The notes beneath the pieces are model-generated. The model worked only from the letters and a program-made list of their open reading frames with translations, was not told the origin of the DNA and searched no databases. 30,838 nt of DNA from IMG/VR virus record IMGVR_UViG_2917413769_000005. One strand, 5' to 3'. This DNA comes from a virus. Lineage: Duplodnaviria; Heunggongvirae; Uroviricota; Caudoviricetes. The translations under genes and the position numbers were made by a program. Below are positions 19,858-27,184 of this stretch, in pieces (position 1 is the first letter of the stretch; every line of letters starts with the position of its first letter).

Positions 19858-20915
19858 TGAAGAAGCGCACCTACAAAAACAAACACACCGCCAGCAGTGG
19901 CAGTGCCGGACAGCCTGATATCTCTGACGCGCTCAGAAGCGATCCGGCGCTCAGCGCCTTCACGTTTGACGGGCCATATTCGGTAACAGACGGCTATGAT
20001 CTGCTGGACAGCATGTGCTGCGTCGATAACGGCCGGTACTACGAGACGCCAATAGACTGGAAGGGGTTAACCCGTGCGTTCGCACAGTCCCCACTGCATC
20101 AGTCGGCGCTTTACTTCAAACGCAATGTGCTGACCGGGTGCTATATCCCTCATCCGTTACTCTCGCGGCAGGCCTTCTCTGCGTTTGCGCTGGACTGGTT
20201 TGTCTTCGGCAATGCCTATCTTGAGCGTCGGTCTAATCGCCTGGGAGAGCCGCTAAAACTTAAGCATGTTCCGGCGCTGAACACGCGACGGGGAAGCGAT
20301 CTTGATACCTACTGGTTTATCCGGCAGTGGAAAGATGAATATGAGTTCAAGGCGGGCGAGGTCTGCCACATCATGAACCCGGACATTCATCAGGAAATCT
20401 ACGGTATGCCGGAATACATGGGGGCGCTTCTGTCCGCCAGCCTGTCACATTCCGCCGATAAATTCCGCAAACTCTATTACGACAACGGCTCCCATGCCGG
20501 ATGCATTCTCTATGTCGGTTCGGAGAAGGTGGATCAGGAAAGCATAAAGGTGGTGCAAAAAACGCTGTCACAGGCCAGAGGGAAAGGCTCCTTCAAAAAC
20601 GTGCTGATCCACGCGCCGGGTGGCGGCAAAGACGGCGTGCAACTGTTGCCGTTCAGCCAGATATCGGCAAAGGATGAGTTTCTTAACATCAAATCAGCAA
20701 CGCGCAACGATTTGCGCGACGCTCACCGCATCCCGCCGCAACTGATGGGCGCAATGCCGGAAGGCAACGGATCGCTCGGTGATGTTGAGAAGGCTGCGCG
20801 TGTCTTCGCCATCAACGAAATGTTGCCCGTGATGGAAGCAATGAAGGGCGTCAATGACTGGCTCGGTCAGGAAGTGATCCGCTTTAATCCCTACGCTCTA
20901 CTCAAAGACGAGTGA
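19857..20915 (+). CDS. Q: portal protein gpQ
   Basis: 352 aa, translationally coupled to P (TGATGA). It is in the P2 Q position next to the cos region, and its length and composition are consistent with the P2 portal family. Confidence 0.85.
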   Translation: MKKRTYKNKHTASSGSAGQPDISDALRSDPALSAFTFDGPYSVTDGYDLLDSMCCVDNGRYYETPIDWKGLTRAFAQSPLHQSALYFKRNVLTGCYIPHPLLSRQAFSAFALDWFVFGNAYLERRSNRLGEPLKLKHVPALNTRRGSDLDTYWFIRQWKDEYEFKAGEVCHIMNPDIHQEIYGMPEYMGALLSASLSHSADKFRKLYYDNGSHAGCILYVGSEKVDQESIKVVQKTLSQARGKGSFKNVLIHAPGGGKDGVQLLPFSQISAKDEFLNIKSATRNDLRDAHRIPPQLMGAMPEGNGSLGDVEKAARVFAINEMLPVMEAMKGVNDWLGQEVIRFNPYALLKDE

Positions 20916-20925
20916 CCCGCCCCAC

Positions 20926-20960
20926 CCGCCGCACATCCTGCGGCGGTTCTCCTTCAGTTA
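20926..20960 (+). terminator. rho-independent terminator after Q
   Basis: CCGCCGCA (20926-20933), a CATCC loop, then TGCGGCGG (20939-20946), followed by a T-rich TTCTCCTTCAGTTATTTTC tail. Confidence 0.6.
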
Positions 20961-21167
20961 TTTTCAATTCCCGTATGACCGGCCACCACCTGAGCACCAC
21001 TCAGCACAACCTTAACCCCCCTCACTCAGAGCGCATTAGCGCCACTCTGGCAGGCGCAATCTGCATTTTACCCCGAACACATCCAGAAGTGAGAAAAACG
21101 CGCGGAGAAGGCGAAAAAGGCCGGAGAATGGCAATTAAAGGCATCACCTCCCGACCCTCCGTCGCGT

Positions 21168-21186
21168 GGGCTGTTCCCCCGTCACC
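21168..21186. other. candidate cos cohesive-end sequence
   Basis: The reverse complement GGTGACGGGGGAACAGCCC resembles the recalled P2 19-nt cohesive end GGCGAGGCGGGGAAAGCAC (about 13/19 ungapped). It lies about 255 nt past the Q stop, similar to the P2 cos-Q distance. This rests on memory only and was not searched. Confidence 0.35.
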
Positions 21187-21282
21187 TGCGCGCGACATTT
21201 GCTTCGTTTTTTGTGCATTTCCCGATCTGGGGGCAGACCGCGCCACCACAGGGCGGAAAGGTCATAAACAGCATCAAAAAAA

Positions 21283-21309
21283 TTGTGCAAATTTGTGCAC
21301 TATTGTGCG
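21283..21309. repeat. three helically phased TTGTGC(A/G) direct repeats near cos
   Basis: TTGTGCA at 21283 and 21293 and TTGTGCG at 21303, spaced exactly 10 bp apart. A fourth TTGTGCA lies at 21211-21217. Confidence 0.6.
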
Positions 21310-21366
21310 ACAGAGAAAGAAGGCCCGGAGGGAAGAAAAGCCGCCTTTAAAAGACAGCTTCTCATG

Positions 21367-21750
21367 TCAGTGGGGATTGATGGATAGTCGGCGCAAAACA
21401 GCAGCAACATCGCCACTGCTTAATGAACCCGTCGCTGCGGATACGGTCAGTTCTTCCAGTTCATTACCTTCATCACGGATATCAATACCATTGCGCTTTA
21501 AAAAAGCCATCGCAACGAAAAAGGCGGTTCGCTTATTGCCGTCATTGAAGATATGACCACGCGAAATGGCGACGAGATACATCGCAGCGAGTTCGTGAAT
21601 ATCCTCAACGCCTTCATAGTAAAGCTGGTTCTGAACACGATAAATGATCGCCTCTGCTCTTCCCGGTTCTGGCATCCCCTGAACGCCGGGCAAAGCTGCA
21701 AGCAGACGATCATGAAACGCTATCACCTCCTGAGCGCTGATCCATTTCAT
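21367..21750 (-). CDS. doc: Doc toxin (Fic-fold kinase, death-on-curing family)
   Basis: 127 aa with HIFNDGNKRTAF, matching the Doc variant of the Fic motif H-x-F-x-[DE]-[AG]-N-K-R. It is coupled to the upstream antitoxin gene by an ATGA overlap. Confidence 0.85.
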   Translation of the reverse strand: MKWISAQEVIAFHDRLLAALPGVQGMPEPGRAEAIIYRVQNQLYYEGVEDIHELAAMYLVAISRGHIFNDGNKRTAFFVAMAFLKRNGIDIRDEGNELEELTVSAATGSLSSGDVAAVLRRLSINPH

Positions 21751-21968
21751 CTGTCAGCCAGCGCCTTAATGGTACGACCGTGTCGCCCCATAATTTCAGC
21801 AAATTCAGCATCCAGTTTTGCTTCCTGCCACGCATTGAAATCATCCCGGCTGATAAGCACAGCGGCAGAGCCATCGCGGCGGGTAATTTCTACAGGCTCG
21901 CCAGCCGTAGCCGCCTCCATTACCTCAGCAATATTTTGCCGGGCCTGAGATGTGGTATAGGTTCGCAT
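21747..21968 (-). CDS. phd: Phd/YefM-family antitoxin
   Basis: MRTYTTSQARQNIAEVMEAATAGEPVEITRRDGSAAVLISRDDF... is a typical Phd/YefM N-terminal fold signature. AGGAGG SD lies 6 nt upstream of the ATG at 21968; the ORF-track start at 21989 is too long. Confidence 0.85.
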   Translation of the reverse strand: MRTYTTSQARQNIAEVMEAATAGEPVEITRRDGSAAVLISRDDFNAWQEAKLDAEFAEIMGRHGRTIKALADR

Positions 21969-22195: not shown

Positions 22196-22705
22196 TCAGA
22201 AAACTGGATTAATTTTGCGGTGGTAGAGCACTTCCCACAGAAGCGATATCAACTCTTCCTGCCTGATATCCACGGCTTCACTGGCGTCATATTTAGCCAT
22301 CAGCTCATTGATTCGCTCAACAGACAATGGCCCTGCGGAATTTACCGCTGATCGGGAAGATGGGAGACAGCTTTCTTCAGGCGGATGCTCTTCACGCCAT
22401 TTCTTTGCCGCCCTCTCATTCATCAACTGCCATTCGGGATATCGGTTAAATAGCTCACGCTCGGTACTGGTTCGCGCATCATGGCCTTCATCTGCCAGCC
22501 GCGCTGGTTCTGGCTCGCAGCTTTCAGACAAAGCAATATCGTCGGGAGCGTCAAACGGTTTTAACCCCTTGCAGGTGCAGCAAATGCGATCATTAAAATA
22601 ATACTTTTCCTTGTAGTGCAGCTCGTTACCACACTTACGGCATCGCTTAATTTTGTTACTGATGAAATCAATTACTTCCTGCTCTCGCTGTTCTTCGTCA
22701 AACAT
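22196..22705 (-). CDS. hypothetical zinc-ribbon protein (169 aa) in the old/tin-equivalent accessory slot
   Basis: MFDEEQREQEVIDFISNKIKRCRKCGNELHYKEKYYFNDRICCTCKG has a C-x2-C...C-C-x-C ribbon, followed by an acidic/charged 120-aa region. The start at 22705 overlaps the last 34 nt of gpA. I recognise no family for it. Confidence 0.6.
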   Translation of the reverse strand: MFDEEQREQEVIDFISNKIKRCRKCGNELHYKEKYYFNDRICCTCKGLKPFDAPDDIALSESCEPEPARLADEGHDARTSTERELFNRYPEWQLMNERAAKKWREEHPPEESCLPSSRSAVNSAGPLSVERINELMAKYDASEAVDIRQEELISLLWEVLYHRKINPVF

Positions 22706-25281
22706 ACGCGCTGCCCCTGATTCCTGGTGCCAAACAACCTGTCCCACGCAGCCGGATCAGCTTTTTTCAACATTTCCGCATAGCTGCCAACGGGATCATG
22801 CCTGATATCTCTGCTGTCAACATTATGACTTAGCTTCATATGCTGCCACAAATCGGCAGTCTTACGGTCAGCTCCGTTATCTTTTCTGCGCCTCAGCTCT
22901 CCGCTGCTGGTTGCGGAGACAATAAAGCCATCAATTCGCAAACGCTCACCGCGTAGCAATAACGTTAACTGACCTGTGCTCAGTTCTATGCCTATAGATT
23001 TGGCAAAATCATCCAGTGCCGCAATGCGATCGACTGATACAGGAACTGGCCCGGTAACAGCAGGCATATCCCTTTCCTGCTGCCTCAATTCCTGAGCAAC
23101 TTTTAGATAGCTCTCGGCCCTGGCCTGCTCAATATCATCACAATCTGATGCCGTAATGGCATTAGCCAGCGCCTCAAACTCATCAGCAGGTGATTTTTGC
23201 CGTTCCGGTTTGTAGTTTCTGATGCTTTCGTTGAGCCTTTTTTTCTGCTCGTGGGTCATTTGACCAATTTCATACTGTTCAGGCTCAACTGGTGGCGAAT
23301 TTTCACCCTCTGAATTTGTATGTTTTTTGACCTCAGTACAGTTATTGACACGAGTCCTAGAGGGCGCGGACGCGCCCCGAAGGTCAAAATCAAAGTCAAC
23401 GGCCTGCCCGGAGTCGTCTAAAACTTCCGGTTTCTTACGCACAATGCGGTAGGTATGCAGGCGGGTTTCAATTGGTGGGATGTGAACGGCCGGCATCATC
23501 AGACCTTTGATAAGATCCAGATACTCGCCGTAATCATTTGGTTCGTCTTTCTGCTGGTACCAAATGCGCAACGGCAGATCACGGCGGGCAACCAACGCCC
23601 CGCCTTGCAATTGGGTGTATTGCTGCCAGTCGCCAGCATCCGCAGCACGGTGCAGCTCAGCAAATAGCGGGTTTATCTTGTCGGCCTGTTCCTGATTGCG
23701 GAACCGGCGCAGCTCACGCCAGACAGATACCGGCGCGCCGCCCAGAAACTGAAACTGACGGATGCCCCAGCAAGATGCCCAGGCGGTTGCATGTTTTGAA
23801 GTTTCTTTCAGCGGCCTGCCGCTCTCGTCGTCGGTTTCACCGTCGAGCGCGTAGCCGTCAATATTCTTACTGATGTACTTCACCACATAGCCGGTGGCGC
23901 TGCCGATTTCATGATCGATCGGCTTCATATCAAAACGCGGTTGGTTGCCGTGTTTGCCCTGCAACTCTTCCGCATCCTCGCGGGTTGCGTAGTCTTCCAT
24001 CACTTCCAGCAGCTCGGCAGAATGTTCCGGCAGGGAGAACAGCAGGCCGTGCCAGTGCGGCGTACCATCGTGATGAGACTCAGCCACCCGCAAACCAAAA
24101 ACAGGGATTTCACGGCGGGCCAGCTCAGCGCGGATCTGTTGCCATACCCGGTTAAGATAACGCTGCGTGGCTCTTGGGCTGGCACCGTTCCATTTGGCAT
24201 TACGATGACCGAATACGGTATATGCGTGGTATTTGGATGGCGCTGTCAGGGTAAAAAACTGTCCCGCGTATCCGCTTTCGGTGGCGACTTTCTCAAAACC
24301 ACCAATGCGGGTCATGAGTTCAACGCGGCGTAATGCTGGATTAGAAATGCTCTTATCGATCTGCTCAATAAGCGAAATACGCTCTTTGGTGTCCTGGTCT
24401 TCCAGCTCAAGGCGAGCCATGATCGCGCGGCTGCGTTTGCGCCTGGCATCCCACTCATCAACGTGGTGCTTACTGCAATAAGGCGCAGCGCCCCGCTTCA
24501 CATCACCAAAGGCGATATGCAGGTGCTCACGCCAGCGCGCCGCGTACTTTTTCAGGTTACGATGCCAATAGCGATCATCCAGCATCTTACTGATGCCAGT
24601 AGTAGCCTCATCAATAAACAGCGTTCCCCGGCAATACTTTGCCCAGCTCGGAGGCGTCAGGAAGAAAAGCCGCGCGAGGATAGCCGCTTCGGTGTAAAGG
24701 TATCCGGCATATTTGCGATCACTCTGAGTCTCTACCGTTTCGTGAACTTCGCTCAGCACAGACCGCATATAGATAGCAATATCCTGCGCCAGCAGCTCAA
24801 CATCTTCCGGCGTGAAATCCGGCAGGCGGTTAAAGCGCTCAACCAATCCGTGAAGAGTGTGAAACGTGTGGTAAAGCGGGTTTACCCCTTTGAATGCTGT
24901 ATCAGCCTGAGATTTAGCCTCATCGGTCACCGCAATAGCGTATTGCTCATTCACCATGTTGATGGGCGGGAGATCCCTGCGAATAATATCGCGTAGCGCC
25001 AGACGGGCGATGTGCCTGCCCTTCATGGTGTGAATGCTGTCAATACGGGAAGCCAGACGCAGGCGAATAAAGCGAGGTAGCGGCGCAAGGGTAACTTTCA
25101 CCCACGCCAAAAACTCCTGTTCTTGACCCAGCTCGACTAGATCAACAACGGGAGTCTTATCAACACAAATGGCAGCTTTCGGCTTCTGCCATTCGTAAGC
25201 GTACCGGGTGGCGTCTGGTGCGCTACCCGGATACGGAGGGGGCGGCGTTGGAGCGCCACGCCCACTGGCTGCGGTGGTCAT
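22672..25281 (-). CDS. A: replication initiation endonuclease gpA (rolling-circle initiator)
   Basis: 869 aa. FFTLTAPSKYHAY, the HUH-type ESHHDGTPHWHGLLF and the tyrosine motif GYVVKYISKNIDG match the P2 gpA family. The ATGA overlaps the upstream methyltransferase gene. Confidence 0.9.
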   Translation of the reverse strand: MTTAASGRGAPTPPPPYPGSAPDATRYAYEWQKPKAAICVDKTPVVDLVELGQEQEFLAWVKVTLAPLPRFIRLRLASRIDSIHTMKGRHIARLALRDIIRRDLPPINMVNEQYAIAVTDEAKSQADTAFKGVNPLYHTFHTLHGLVERFNRLPDFTPEDVELLAQDIAIYMRSVLSEVHETVETQSDRKYAGYLYTEAAILARLFFLTPPSWAKYCRGTLFIDEATTGISKMLDDRYWHRNLKKYAARWREHLHIAFGDVKRGAAPYCSKHHVDEWDARRKRSRAIMARLELEDQDTKERISLIEQIDKSISNPALRRVELMTRIGGFEKVATESGYAGQFFTLTAPSKYHAYTVFGHRNAKWNGASPRATQRYLNRVWQQIRAELARREIPVFGLRVAESHHDGTPHWHGLLFSLPEHSAELLEVMEDYATREDAEELQGKHGNQPRFDMKPIDHEIGSATGYVVKYISKNIDGYALDGETDDESGRPLKETSKHATAWASCWGIRQFQFLGGAPVSVWRELRRFRNQEQADKINPLFAELHRAADAGDWQQYTQLQGGALVARRDLPLRIWYQQKDEPNDYGEYLDLIKGLMMPAVHIPPIETRLHTYRIVRKKPEVLDDSGQAVDFDFDLRGASAPSRTRVNNCTEVKKHTNSEGENSPPVEPEQYEIGQMTHEQKKRLNESIRNYKPERQKSPADEFEALANAITASDCDDIEQARAESYLKVAQELRQQERDMPAVTGPVPVSVDRIAALDDFAKSIGIELSTGQLTLLLRGERLRIDGFIVSATSSGELRRRKDNGADRKTADLWQHMKLSHNVDSRDIRHDPVGSYAEMLKKADPAAWDRLFGTRNQGQRVCLTKNSESRK

Positions 25282-26297
25282 TTCACCGCATCCATGTAAG
25301 CACTTATGAAGGTTGCTGCGACTTCCGCGCAGATGGCATTTCCGTAGGCGCGCAACTGGCCCACTCTTCCGGCAACCCCATTAACCAGCGGCTTAAGTCC
25401 TGGTTTAACTGGCCTCCACTTTCCATCATGGCAGAAGAGCCAGTCAGCATCTTGCCAGAAGCCGTTAACCTGATGGGGCCAATCATTTTTGATTGCTGGG
25501 TCAGACTGCTGCCCGTCATCGCCGGAGTGATCCCCCTCCCGCCCCTGGTTCCGTCCGATGCACTCGGAGTTGTCCAACCGGATAACTGTGCTGTCACATC
25601 CAGCCGATCCGTTGACAGCTTCCCGTTGCGAATCCTCCCTCCCTGATACCCCCCTTTCCCATCCGTTGCTGTTGGAGTATTCCACCCCGCTAGGCAGGCA
25701 AAATCTTGCAGATTCGACTGCCTGCCCGCCATCATTCTGGCTATAACTTTCAATGGATCCTGATACGCGTTTTTGACGTTGCTCGCGTTCGGAGTGGGCC
25801 ACCCAGAAGAGGCGCTGTCTTATATGCGGGGCACCGAAGCCCGCAGCGCAAAGATCGAGAGCTGTTGCGGCGTAGCCCGTTCCTTCCAAGTCAGTCTGTA
25901 CAATGTCGAACCAACCGAGGCCGTCCTTGCTTGCAACCTGCTCACCAAAGACAGTCTCAGGGCGGCACTGCTCAATGAGATAGTGGAAATGGGGCCAAAG
26001 GTGCCGCTCGTCAGTAACCCCTGCTCTTTTGCCTGACTGGCTGAAAGGTTGGCACGGGCAAGAGCCTGTCCAGATAGGGCGATCGTCCGCCCATCCAGCC
26101 CGGCGCAGGGCGTAAGACCAGACGCCGATCCCTGCAAAGAAATGGCATTGAGTGAATCCGTTAAGGTCATTTGGTGTTACTTCCTCAATAGAACGGGTGT
26201 CAACAACGCCCGGCGCTATGTGCCCAGCGTCAATAAGATTGCGCAGCCATTGAGCCGCAAAGGGATCGATCTCGTTGTAATAAGCCGTCACAATCAC
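25278..26297 (-). CDS. orphan DNA (cytosine-5) methyltransferase
   Basis: FFAGIG (motif I), SCPCQPFSQSGK (IV), VFGEQV (VI, ENV variant), GAPHIRQRLFWV (VIII) and LRAYGNAICAEVA (X) are present. No adjacent restriction gene was seen. See the finding on its second reading frame. Confidence 0.85.
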   Translation of the reverse strand: MIVTAYYNEIDPFAAQWLRNLIDAGHIAPGVVDTRSIEEVTPNDLNGFTQCHFFAGIGVWSYALRRAGWADDRPIWTGSCPCQPFSQSGKRAGVTDERHLWPHFHYLIEQCRPETVFGEQVASKDGLGWFDIVQTDLEGTGYAATALDLCAAGFGAPHIRQRLFWVAHSEREQRQKRVSGSIESYSQNDGGQAVESARFCLPSGVEYSNSNGWERGVSGREDSQREAVNGSAGCDSTVIRLDNSECIGRNQGREGDHSGDDGQQSDPAIKNDWPHQVNGFWQDADWLFCHDGKWRPVKPGLKPLVNGVAGRVGQLRAYGNAICAEVAATFISAYMDAVK

Positions 26298-27184
26298 GCC
26301 CCCTCAGCACACTGCCCGCAGCTCTCACAGTTCCCGCAACCACCTGCCGGGCATCCCTCAACGATGCCCAAAGTGCCGATCACCTCTTTGGCCTTCTGGC
26401 GGTTGCTGGCGTCAGTGCTAACAGAGCGCTGCACGTCGATTTCATGCAGGCGGAAACGGTGGTAAATCTCGCGGGTGGTTTCGGTGTCACTGTTGGAAAT
26501 GACAACCGGCGCGCCATATTTGCGGTTCACTTCCAGCAGCTCCGCCGCTAACTGGCGGTGGTGCTTCTCGGTGAATGGCTCGGTGTGGTATTGGGTGAAA
26601 TTGGCGGTTTCGCTGGCAGGCAGGTACGGGGGATCGCAGTAGATGGCTTCATCCGTTCCAACCATCACTTTGAGGGTGTTTTGAAACGAGCTGCACAGAA
26701 AAATAGCTTTGGTGTCGTTGGCCTTCTCAGCAAACTGGCGGATCTCCGCCTCCGGGAAGTAAGGCGCGCTTTTGTGCTGACCAAACGGGACGTTATAACC
26801 ACCGCTCTGGTTGTAACGCACCACGCCGTTGTAGCCGTGGCGGTTGAGGTACAGAAACAGAGCCGCGCGGGCCACATCAAGCAAGCCTTTTGTACCGTTG
26901 AAAATGCGGCGGTTCTGTAAGTATTCCTCTTTGGAATTGCCGGTCGCAAAGAGCGGGCGGGCAAGATCAATCACCAGCTCAGGATTGCTTTTTACCTCAC
27001 GATAAAGGCGGATCAGATCTGGGTTGATATCCGCAAGAATGTACCGGCGATAATCGGTATTGAGGAACACGGAAGCGCCGCCAACAAAAGGCTCAACGAG
27101 GCAACCAGCCTTTGGTAAATGCGGCAGTAATTCAGGCATCACGCGGCTTTTGCCACCGGGCCATTTGAGTAGAGATCGAATCAT
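26294..27184 (-). CDS. dam: DNA adenine methyltransferase (Dam, GATC-type family) with Cys-rich C-terminal tail
   Basis: LKWPGGKSRVMPELLPHLP, EPFVGGASVFLN and IYCDPPYLP (DPPY catalytic motif) match Dam. AGGAGA SD lies upstream. About 20 extra C-terminal residues read GCPAGGCGNCESCGQCAEGA. Confidence 0.9.
   Translation of the reverse strand: MIRSLLKWPGGKSRVMPELLPHLPKAGCLVEPFVGGASVFLNTDYRRYILADINPDLIRLYREVKSNPELVIDLARPLFATGNSKEEYLQNRRIFNGTKGLLDVARAALFLYLNRHGYNGVVRYNQSGGYNVPFGQHKSAPYFPEAEIRQFAEKANDTKAIFLCSSFQNTLKVMVGTDEAIYCDPPYLPASETANFTQYHTEPFTEKHHRQLAAELLEVNRKYGAPVVISNSDTETTREIYHRFRLHEIDVQRSVSTDASNRQKAKEVIGTLGIVEGCPAGGCGNCESCGQCAEGA

Follow-up and report, generated by a model that had tools for sequence, protein, structure and literature searches.

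A conserved second reading frame nested in the C5 methyltransferase gene of a P2-like prophage, beside a Dam methyltransferase with a cysteine-rich tail

We analyzed the dam-dcm-gpA region of a 30,838-nucleotide (nt) stretch of viral DNA (Caudoviricetes; IMG/VR record IMGVR_UViG_2917413769_000005), referred to here in its full length as the window. The open reading frame (ORF) list and family profile searches place three ORFs head to tail on the minus strand: dam, a C5-cytosine methyltransferase (C5-MTase) gene (dcm), and the replication initiator gene gpA. In addition to its annotated frame (alpha), dcm holds a second conserved ORF in the +1 frame, from 26170 to 25304 (beta), which the initial annotation missed. 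Two +1-frame ORFs are listed inside dcm, at 26170..25820 and 25753..25304. The features of the two methyltransferase genes and of gpA are as follows (aa, amino acids; AF2, AlphaFold2; pLDDT, predicted local distance difference test).

27184..26294, minus strand: dam, 296 aa, with the core at residues 1 to 270 (PF02086, E = 5e-64; TIGR00571, 267.9 bits)
26297..25278, minus strand: dcm alpha, C5-MTase, 339 aa, GTG start (PF00145, E = 4e-14, residues 76 to 175 only)
25820..26170, minus strand: beta, N-terminal part, ATG at 26170, 116 codons, containing ...LSASQAKEQGLLTSGT...SRLQARTASVGSTLYRLTWKERATP...ALRASVPRI and then the stop
25304..25819, minus strand: beta, C-terminal part, three GW(P/N/T)TP modules and then the C-module; stop at 25306-25304
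25461..25784, minus strand: alpha linker, residues 172 to 279, low complexity, predicted disordered, AF2 pLDDT 23 to 28
25281..22672, minus strand: gpA, replication initiator, 869 aa (PF05840, E = 3e-100), with an ATGA overlap with the alpha stop

We translated nine diverse homologues (the window, SW3, SEN5, N15, Pseudomonas Haboob, Burkholderia BcepC6B, Xanthomonas PhiXhv-28, Klebsiella LASTA, and Edwardsiella PVN06). In each of them, most of the gene is open and conserved in the +1 frame, and stops abound in the +2 frame. We then surveyed 80 viral loci with 46 to 70% alpha identity and GC contents of 0.44 to 0.67, one of which was cut by a contig end. Across the 79 intact loci, the +1 frame was without exception open for 235 to 617 codons, stop to stop, and the +1 stops all fell within approximately the first 40 to 60 codons. 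As a control, we examined 43 other long ORFs from these loci, which carried 0.031 +1 stops per codon and whose longest open stretch had a median of 92 codons; one of the 43 had a +1 stretch of at least 235 codons. The +1 open stretch was at most 93 codons in 63 canonical HaeIII-like phage MTase genes.

A 149-aa piece of beta matched 218 phage records by tblastn, including N15 (64% identity, E = 5e-47), where the match lies in a frame other than that of the annotated gp58 (gene 58). With clustering at 50% identity, the beta family has 20,008 cluster representatives at E ≤ 1e-3 and 7,881 at E ≤ 1e-30, and the C-terminal part of beta matches phrog_31772 (E = 2e-53); the two-frame gene is also found in Paenibacillus larvae phages, a cyanophage, and an Acidobacteria phage. 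Both frames are annotated in a few GenBank records, namely K1ind3 (ORF30/ORF29), PhiXhv-28, K1H, and Arcticfreeze. The beta frame of K1ind3 (L161, GU196281, 913-1710) is labeled "putative Mte8-like protein," a name that may go back to a database entry for a methylase subunit, and in Salmonella phage W5_chr3 (L163, 913-1842) beta is the only frame annotated. Literature searches for an analysis of the overlapping ORF returned annotation labels only.

Constraint on the two frames was compared by aligning 73 unique genes on beta, rereading the alignment in alpha, and calculating mean pairwise amino acid identity per 10-codon block. The blocks gave the following values.

Motifs I to IV: alpha 0.65-0.91, beta 0.29-0.59
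Motifs VI to VIII (beta LASRLQA..GSTLYKLTWK..LRASVRRTS): alpha 0.57-0.86, beta 0.59-0.68
Motif VIII to the C-terminal block: alpha 0.12-0.34, beta 0.17-0.58
GWPTP blocks within the linker: alpha 0.26-0.34, beta 0.53-0.58
C-terminal block (alpha NGFW..DGKWRPVEPG..RVGRLRAY): alpha 0.70-0.86, beta 0.74-0.86
After the beta stop: alpha 0.68, beta 0.45

A frame that is not under selection falls to approximately half the identity of the other. Identity is high in both frames over two segments, and thus approximately 90 codons in total are constrained in both. Conservation at alpha wobble sites was 0.56 to 0.69 upstream, 0.70 to 0.93 in the overlap, and 0.47 to 0.67 past the beta stop. In two long versions of the gene (P0189, 488 aa; P0165, 385 aa), alpha stays open across 200 to 300 codons of "xMADTD" repeats, which are GWPTP read one base earlier. 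In the linker, the GC content of 0.75 at the third codon position of beta, versus 0.59 to 0.60 elsewhere, agrees weakly with beta as the primary frame. By these measures of sequence conservation, beta is a selected coding frame.

The catalytic motifs SCPCQPFS, FGEQV, and HIRQRLF are visible in alpha, and its motifs are ordered II/III, I-like, IV (PCQ), VI (GEQV), VIII (RQR), the disordered linker, and a motif X-like GNAI. Alpha matches phrog_363 (E = 1e-92), the M.HhaI profile (E = 1e-12, residues 75 to 168), and, by hhalign, the HaeIII-family profile (probability 96%, E = 5e-9); sequence profiles align motifs IV to VIII only, and no model extends past approximately residue 181. The segment FFAGIGVWS (residues 53 to 61), which follows the motif II/III-like NEID and DTRSI, aligns to motif I of M.HhaI below threshold. 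In an AF2 model of alpha built with 121 sequences, pLDDT was mostly 80 to 94 over residues 1 to 171, with a dip to 46 to 63 near residues 81 to 100 (the PCQ loop), and mostly 64 to 91 over the hairpin and terminal helix of residues 280 to 339. AYGNAI and the confident terminal helix (residues 321 to 338) were taken as motif X. The linker that separates these two parts ranges from approximately 25 to approximately 300 residues across relatives. The best Foldseek matches to alpha in the PDB were C5-MTases (8yf3, M.HhaI, M.HaeIII, DNMT1, and 3g7u) over 166 to 200 columns. As modeled, alpha comprises the large domain and the helix of motif X, without a folded target recognition domain (TRD) or small domain, and its disordered gap coincides with the region where beta carries its modules. 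The designation "Dcm-type MTase" in the initial annotation is incomplete, since the gene is two-frame and beta is broken in the window.

Motif order appears to be permuted in the proteobacterial alpha chains. In that of the window (26297..25785), the motif II-like YNEID and the III-like VDxRSIxDV precede the I-like FFAGIGVWS..AGW, which lies immediately before PCQ; in hhalign alignments, the FFAGIG segment is handled as an insertion with a weak likeness to motif I. The alpha chain of the Paenibacillus phage has the canonical motif order.

Beta is predicted to begin at an ATG situated 42, 46, 52, 54, or 56 codons upstream of a conserved LSAxQAK motif, and Shine-Dalgarno-like sequences precede 29 of 48 such starts. 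In one class of starts, the rare AGG-AGC codons of an alpha Arg-Ser pair (DERSI) form an AGGAG that precedes the ATG by 9 nt (loci L013, L020, L029, L035, L040, and L048); rare codons in alpha appear to have been recruited to provide beta with its ribosome-binding site. The predicted protein is 246 to 490 aa long among relatives and would be approximately 290 residues long in the window if uninterrupted. It consists of an N-terminal module (helix and hairpin in AF2, pLDDT 60 to 68), 1 to approximately 10 GWPTP-x-A-x-D modules of recurring types (e.g., ...TTRDHKGGYEGGRIRDGKISTD..., ...SASDGTRGGTGIT..MTGSSLTQ..., and ...MAGTPAQNGN..AGNTDSS...), and a C-module. These modules are combined differently in P0189 (L009, 4001-5467), P0172, P0147, and P0165, and the alpha linker lengthens in step. 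No meaningful match to beta was found in Pfam, NCBIfam, PADLOC, or PDB-sequence searches. An AF2 model of the beta homologue P0122 alone (107-sequence alignment) scored poorly (pLDDT 47.7; predicted template modeling score, 0.22), which is consistent with a need for a partner. Within the C-module, the segment starting RLTASG resembles ITLSAYG...KLHPRECARVMGYPDSY of M.HhaI by eye.

We propose, with moderate confidence, that alpha and beta form a heterodimeric C5-methylase in which beta would supply the small or recognition domain. Frame 0 would yield alpha, with its catalytic large domain and motif X helix and a disordered linker of approximately 108 residues replacing the TRD. The +1 frame would yield a beta chain of approximately 290 residues, started independently from the internal ATG, whose C-terminal segment resembles the end of the TRD and motif IX of canonical C5-MTases. 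As with M.EcoHK31I, the two chains would combine to form a single enzyme. M.EcoHK31I is made as separate polypeptides, with beta encoded within alpha but read in a different frame, and the alpha and beta chains must associate for activity (PMC2836561, citing Lee et al. 1995, NAR 23:103, and Fung et al. 2006). Its description assigns motifs I to VIII, motif X, and the TRD to alpha and motif IX to beta, a chain of 176 aa whose N-terminal ~42 residues are needed for association with alpha (PMC2836561).

Several results weigh against this proposal. The top hhalign alignment of beta is motif IX, but with E = 0.24 against M.HhaI and E = 0.15 against an 80-sequence HhaI-family profile; profile-profile comparison of beta with the HaeIII family gave no match. 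Neither beta nor the beta/alpha hybrids had any Pfam match; since none of 10 constructs matched PF00145, comparing the beta C-module joined to alpha motif X with the native alpha C terminus favored neither. Alpha has a conserved R-P-V-E-P-G..PL..G segment of its own before GNAI, which could itself be the motif IX equivalent. Furthermore, the TRD-like modules here are in beta and their alpha counterpart is disordered, whereas the TRD of M.EcoHK31I is reportedly in alpha, and the likeness between the two systems is one of architecture.

How beta should be read depends on three alternatives to the two-chain enzyme. Conservation of the +1 frame could be a by-product of codon bias, GC content, or RNA structure, without translation. 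Long open alternative frames are indeed common in high-GC genes, and one control ORF was at least as open as the shortest viral +1 frame. Nevertheless, the frame is open at every intact locus across the full GC range, including the Paenibacillus phage locus L162 (GC 0.45); insertions and deletions come in beta-frame units, namely GWPTP modules; linker identity is higher in beta than in alpha; and the 20,008 family representatives have consistent N termini. We therefore regard a by-product as extremely improbable. Another way to dispense with a second protein is to assume a single canonical MTase made through two programmed ribosomal frameshifts, from frame 0 into +1 through GWPTP, the TRD, and motif IX, and back to frame 0. 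This reading would restore the canonical order of motifs I to VIII, TRD (..TL..), IX, and X, and the first GWPTP falls at the end of motif VIII (FWVA). It is nonetheless very unlikely, given that alpha stays open through 25 to 300 codons of otherwise unconstrained linker at every locus, that beta is open for 50 to 100 codons upstream of any plausible shift site, and that beta has conserved start codons accompanied by Shine-Dalgarno-like sequences. The alpha segment lying over the beta C-module is itself conserved (identity 0.70 to 0.86), and the chains of M.EcoHK31I are described as separate polypeptides. No conserved slippery site or in-frame stop was noticed on reading the translations, although no search was aimed at them.

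The remaining alternative accepts beta as a genuine overprinted gene and denies that it is an MTase subunit; it would instead encode an independent phage protein, such as an anti-defense or regulatory factor. The absence of significant Pfam, NCBIfam, PADLOC, or PDB similarity fits such a protein, as do the subsignificant motif IX resemblance and the conserved segment that alpha retains before motif X. The GWPTP modules, numbering from 1 to approximately 10 and seemingly shuffled between relatives, are likewise what one would see in a fast-evolving interaction protein. Against this, beta was nowhere seen without alpha, whether in the two long versions checked in DNA or in the phage and plasmid tblastn matches, all of which lie under MTase genes. 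The only characterized gene with such an architecture, M.EcoHK31I, is a two-chain MTase; the disordered linker of alpha lies where a TRD is expected, exactly where beta is best conserved; and beta does not fold when modeled alone. We consider an independent protein unlikely, though a good deal less so than either by-product or frameshifting, and prefer the two-chain enzyme.

In the window, a TAA (25822-25820) stands at codon 117 of beta and interrupts the frame. Compared with the Hafnia gene, a single C-to-A change turns ATC into ATA, which is silent in alpha (Ile), and TCA into TAA in beta. The TAA is absent from beta in all intact viral relatives; the site reads ...R(T/I)S(D/G)... in L092, L093, and L096 (approximately 90% nucleotide identity) and in Hafnia alvei L244, and the closest alpha homologue is from Hafnia alvei (87%). 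The stop separates the putative docking module of beta from its recognition/motif IX part. In the proposed two-chain enzyme, this one substitution would truncate beta past the N-terminal module, so that C5 methylation would be lost or weakened while Dam remained intact. The C5 methylase of the window is probably impaired (inactive or weakened) if the sequence is correct and beta is required; on the other side, the TAA could be a sequencing error. A mutation of this kind, which probably cripples the C5-methylase and is silent in the annotated frame, is one that standard annotation would never flag.

The Hafnia alvei gene (L244, OZ061315.1, 3001-4020) is almost identical to dcm of the window in the middle and C-terminal parts of alpha and beta and differs in the N-terminal third. 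It sits in a non-P2 prophage beside SSB and DUF551 genes. The near-identical part in a prophage of another type indicates that unrelated prophages have exchanged the methylase module in mosaic fashion.

The initial annotation had dam, the C5-MTase gene, and gpA linked by ATGA overlaps throughout. Sequence reading upholds ATGA at the dcm/gpA junction; the dam/dcm junction instead reads GCG TGA TTG TGA, a GTGA overlap with the GTG start at 26297, and a second GTG lies near the dcm start at 26291. The coupling of both methyltransferase genes to gpA in the early operon, also part of that annotation, holds up: the same dam-dcm-A order is found in the annotated P2-like phages SEN4/SEN5 and SW3/SW5/SI7, with an identical 4-nt dcm/gpA overlap in SEN5. 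A Cox-like gene, an XRE-type repressor, an integrase, and gpD around the region identify a P2-like prophage, and the size and order of the remaining ORFs of the window, taken alone, suggest the tail, capsid, terminase, and portal genes typical of P2. These observations support the view that the region is the distal end of a P2-like prophage early operon, with two orphan MTases translationally coupled to gpA. Orphan status, taken in the initial annotation from the lack of a restriction partner, is supported, short of proof: none of the unassigned window ORFs tested, which did not extend to an annotation of every ORF, had a nuclease-like Pfam or PADLOC match. When the region was compared with phage genomes at the nucleotide level, a 304-nt segment of Bordetella phage PHB09 was the sole match, and close annotated relatives are thus lacking.

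The Dam protein matches its family models over their full length (TIGR00571 over residues 3 to 269, against a curated cutoff of 114.85 bits; PF02086 with 217 bits over residues 8 to 254, against a cutoff of 22 bits). The catalytic DPPY motif is present (IYCDPPYLP), and the best PADLOC model is "orphan methyltransferase" (E = 4e-96). As judged from these matches, Dam is a Dam-family N6-adenine enzyme, presumably of GATC type, that is intact in the window. The family models end near residue 270, and a cysteine-rich extension lies outside them, as follows.

26297..26374, minus strand: Dam C-terminal tail, residues 271 to 296 (TLGIVEGCPAGGCGNCESCGQCAEGA), after the conserved ...KAKEVIG
26353..26309, minus strand: cysteine cluster of the tail, C278 to C292 (C278, C283, C286, C289, and C292)
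26300..26305, minus strand: Shine-Dalgarno-like GAGGGG for dcm alpha, formed by Dam codons E294-G295 (GCT GAG GGG GCG TGA TTG TGA)

The five-cysteine pattern C-x4-C-x2-C-x2-C-x2-C pointed out in the initial annotation can be read directly in the window Dam, and the 26 tail residues contain 5 Cys versus 3 in the 270-residue core (binomial P ~ 9e-6). E. coli Dam has approximately 12 further residues after ...DELLA. The extension beyond the usual Dam end is accordingly real but shorter than first stated, nearer 14 than 20 residues. A literature search found no published description of a Dam Cys tail.

To determine how widespread such tails are, we surveyed the residues after EVIG in the 120 closest Dam clusters (56 to 96% identity). 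At least four Cys follow the core in 91 of the 120, and none follow EVIG in 13. A CxxC-x6-10-CxxC arrangement, typically VCEGCGRAGGGCCPDCGP, occurs in 71 clusters, often as CPDCG, which we take to be a rubredoxin-type knuckle; the GCx4CxxC pattern of the window occurs in 10. An acidic stretch with a terminal hydrophobic residue (...DDLEAF, ...DEDAF, or ...ESEENPIPL) is present in 59 of the 120 tails. The long Dam tails of P0006, P0008, P0010, P0031, L114, L115, L121, and L122 end in this acidic and hydrophobic fashion (...YWESEENPIPL, ...FVDEDAF, and ...DDLEAF). Such ends resemble the C-terminal tip of SSB (DDDIPF), a docking site for many replication and repair proteins; the window Dam is without an end of this type.

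In a second survey of 67 viral Dam loci with readable tails, dcm lay downstream in only approximately 20, tail type did not track dcm, and Cys-rich tails were mostly at loci without a following dcm. An interaction of the tail with the downstream MTase, one of the roles first suggested for it, is consequently unlikely. The window tail belongs to a type that we call B, which is shared with P0022, P0024, P0025, P0027, P0044, P0076, and P0088 and with L092-L099, L104, and L109. Longer type-B tails run on as ...CGQC(M/V)GIADDSEMEAL (L099 and L104, with L also found at the variable position among longer relatives) or as ...CESSRECLGIADDSEMEAL (L095 and L109), and that of the window stops at ...CGQCAEGA directly before dcm, with AEGA replacing the ...GIADDSEMEAL of L099 and L104. 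The AEGA codons are explained by the gene overlap because they carry the dcm Shine-Dalgarno sequence; in the relatives L093 and L096, Dam ends ...TEEA, which is consistent, at the protein level only, with a purine-rich Shine-Dalgarno sequence in the same place. The suggestion that the tail is an incidental by-product of the overlap is therefore right for its last four codons, but Cys-rich tails in 91 of 120 Dam clusters, mostly without dcm, speak against extending it to the cysteines. A candidate role for the Dam tail as the source of motif I for alpha was rejected, since alpha already contains FFAGIG and tails are also found where dcm is missing.

Dam cores that are 86 to 100% identical over their best-matching segment bear a full type-B tail, a type-A tail, a stub with one or two Cys (GCPAGGCE or GCPASGGE, each followed by the stop), or no tail (for example, TLGTHAES and the stop). 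In alignment with orthologues, the check that had been proposed for this feature, Dams 94 to 100% identical over their best-matching segment have the tail in full, cut down to one or two Cys, exchanged for a different type, or missing altogether, which bears out in part the refuting outcome named in the initial annotation. These data indicate a recurrent, exchangeable C-terminal cassette on prophage Dams that is evidently dispensable, of which the window holds a shortened copy; swapping of the cassette suggests a recruitment or regulatory role. The full module would comprise a cluster of four or more Cys, often arranged as two CxxC knuckles, then a linker, and then an acidic peptide with a hydrophobic end. 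We infer that the cluster may bind metal, with zinc the likeliest candidate, and that a complete module may act as a docking appendage outside catalysis. The window Dam would retain the Cys cluster only, its last four codons existing as the dcm ribosome-binding site.

A competing account is that the window tail is a functionless remnant, severed when the dcm module recombined in and kept for the dcm ribosome-binding site. Its premature end relative to the longer type-B tails agrees with severing. Constraint on type-B tails also looks weak in close relatives: one tail Cys is lost in L096 and L097, the tail is reduced to one or two Cys in L098 and L101-L105, and L107, L118, L119, and L153 have no tail Cys. 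These losses occur with nearly unchanged Dam cores and suggest weak constraint, which tells against a functional cluster. On the other hand, all five Cys are retained in the window, L092, and L093, and a Cys-rich tail is the majority state of the Dam family. We hold the remnant account to be a serious possibility, though less likely than not.

Two observations concern neighboring genes. The N terminus of gpA (25281..25150) is Pro/Gly-rich (MTTAASGRGAPTPPPPYPGSAPD...), and the Pfam GPA match begins at residue 160; gpA of P2 is shorter, at approximately 760 aa. Between gpA and a putative portal gene, assigned by size and position only, lie two overlapping plus-strand ORFs (20912..21556, 214 aa; 21553..21948, 131 aa) with no Pfam or PADLOC match. 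In P2-like phages, the stretch from portal to gpA holds variable cargo (old and tin, for example), and the pair may be an uncharacterized accessory or defense cassette.

Taken together, we favor on balance, and with some reserve, an explanation in which (i) an orphan Dam carries a shortened tail, (ii) dcm is a dual-coding gene for an alpha/beta MTase, and (iii) beta is truncated in the window. The coupling of Dam, C5-MTase, and gpA is mostly ordinary, as in known P2-like phages; the noteworthy part is the nested beta gene. A broader and more tentative suggestion, which we consider somewhat doubtful at present, is that tens of thousands of phage and prophage C5-MTase genes are obligate two-gene loci in which a beta of 250 to 490 codons, overlapping nearly all of the catalytic gene, supplies a modular recognition subunit and the GWPTP modules are exchangeable recognition units. 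If it is true, variation from 1 to approximately 10 GWPTP copies would give orphan phage methylases variable or multiple specificities, and alpha and beta would rank, in both length and spread, with the foremost conserved pairs of same-strand overlapping genes known from prokaryotic viruses. The family of 20,008 representatives, concealed in the +1 frame of genes whose sole label is "DNA cytosine methyltransferase," has been missed or called "hypothetical," and it is invisible to Pfam, NCBIfam, and PGAP. If beta is needed for activity, methylome predictions, REBASE-style assignment of specificity, and cloning of such enzymes would fail or mislead. The ~90 codons selected in both frames, with each frame "paying" elsewhere, would form a large natural data set on the origin and upkeep of overlapping genes.

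The Dam of the window shares a full-length Dam-family core and a position in the early operon upstream of gpA with the orphan Dams of P2-like and temperate phages (SEN4/SEN5, SW3, and phiT5282H), and it differs from orphan phage Dams as described by TIGR00571 and PF02086 in the Cys-rich C-terminal extension. For the C5-MTase, two kinds of known enzyme offer partial parallels. M.AquI, reportedly characterized by Karreman and de Waard in 1990, is said to be encoded by consecutive ORFs with a short overlap, alpha carrying motifs I to VIII and beta motifs IX and X. In both systems, a C5-MTase activity would be shared by two polypeptides and divided within the variable region, but beta is nested within alpha in the window, and alpha keeps motif X. 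The C5-MTases of the Bacillus phages SPbeta, phi3T, and rho11s, a subject of Trautner and colleagues, are reportedly orphan, multispecific, anti-restriction enzymes in which recognition modules are arrayed in tandem after motif VIII and before motif IX. They too are orphan phage C5-MTases with a variable number of tandem modules, to which the GWPTP modules would correspond as putative TRDs; in contrast, they are single polypeptides read from one frame.

The closest parallel is M.EcoHK31I. Here, beta (26170..25304) is nested in the +1 frame of alpha (26297..25278), as it is in all intact relatives; alpha has the catalytic motifs and motif X, with motifs IV to VIII significant and motif I weak; and beta has a motif IX-like segment, though with the nonsignificant E values given above. 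The conserved helix-hairpin module of beta would be the equivalent of the association region of M.EcoHK31I. Beta is larger here (246 to 490 versus 176 aa) and almost coextensive with alpha, and the genes are orphan and phage-borne, whereas M.EcoHK31I belongs to a restriction-modification pair. We conclude, with moderate confidence, that the nested beta gene represents the M.EcoHK31I design in a large variant form, one that lacks annotation and is common among the orphan methylases of phages.

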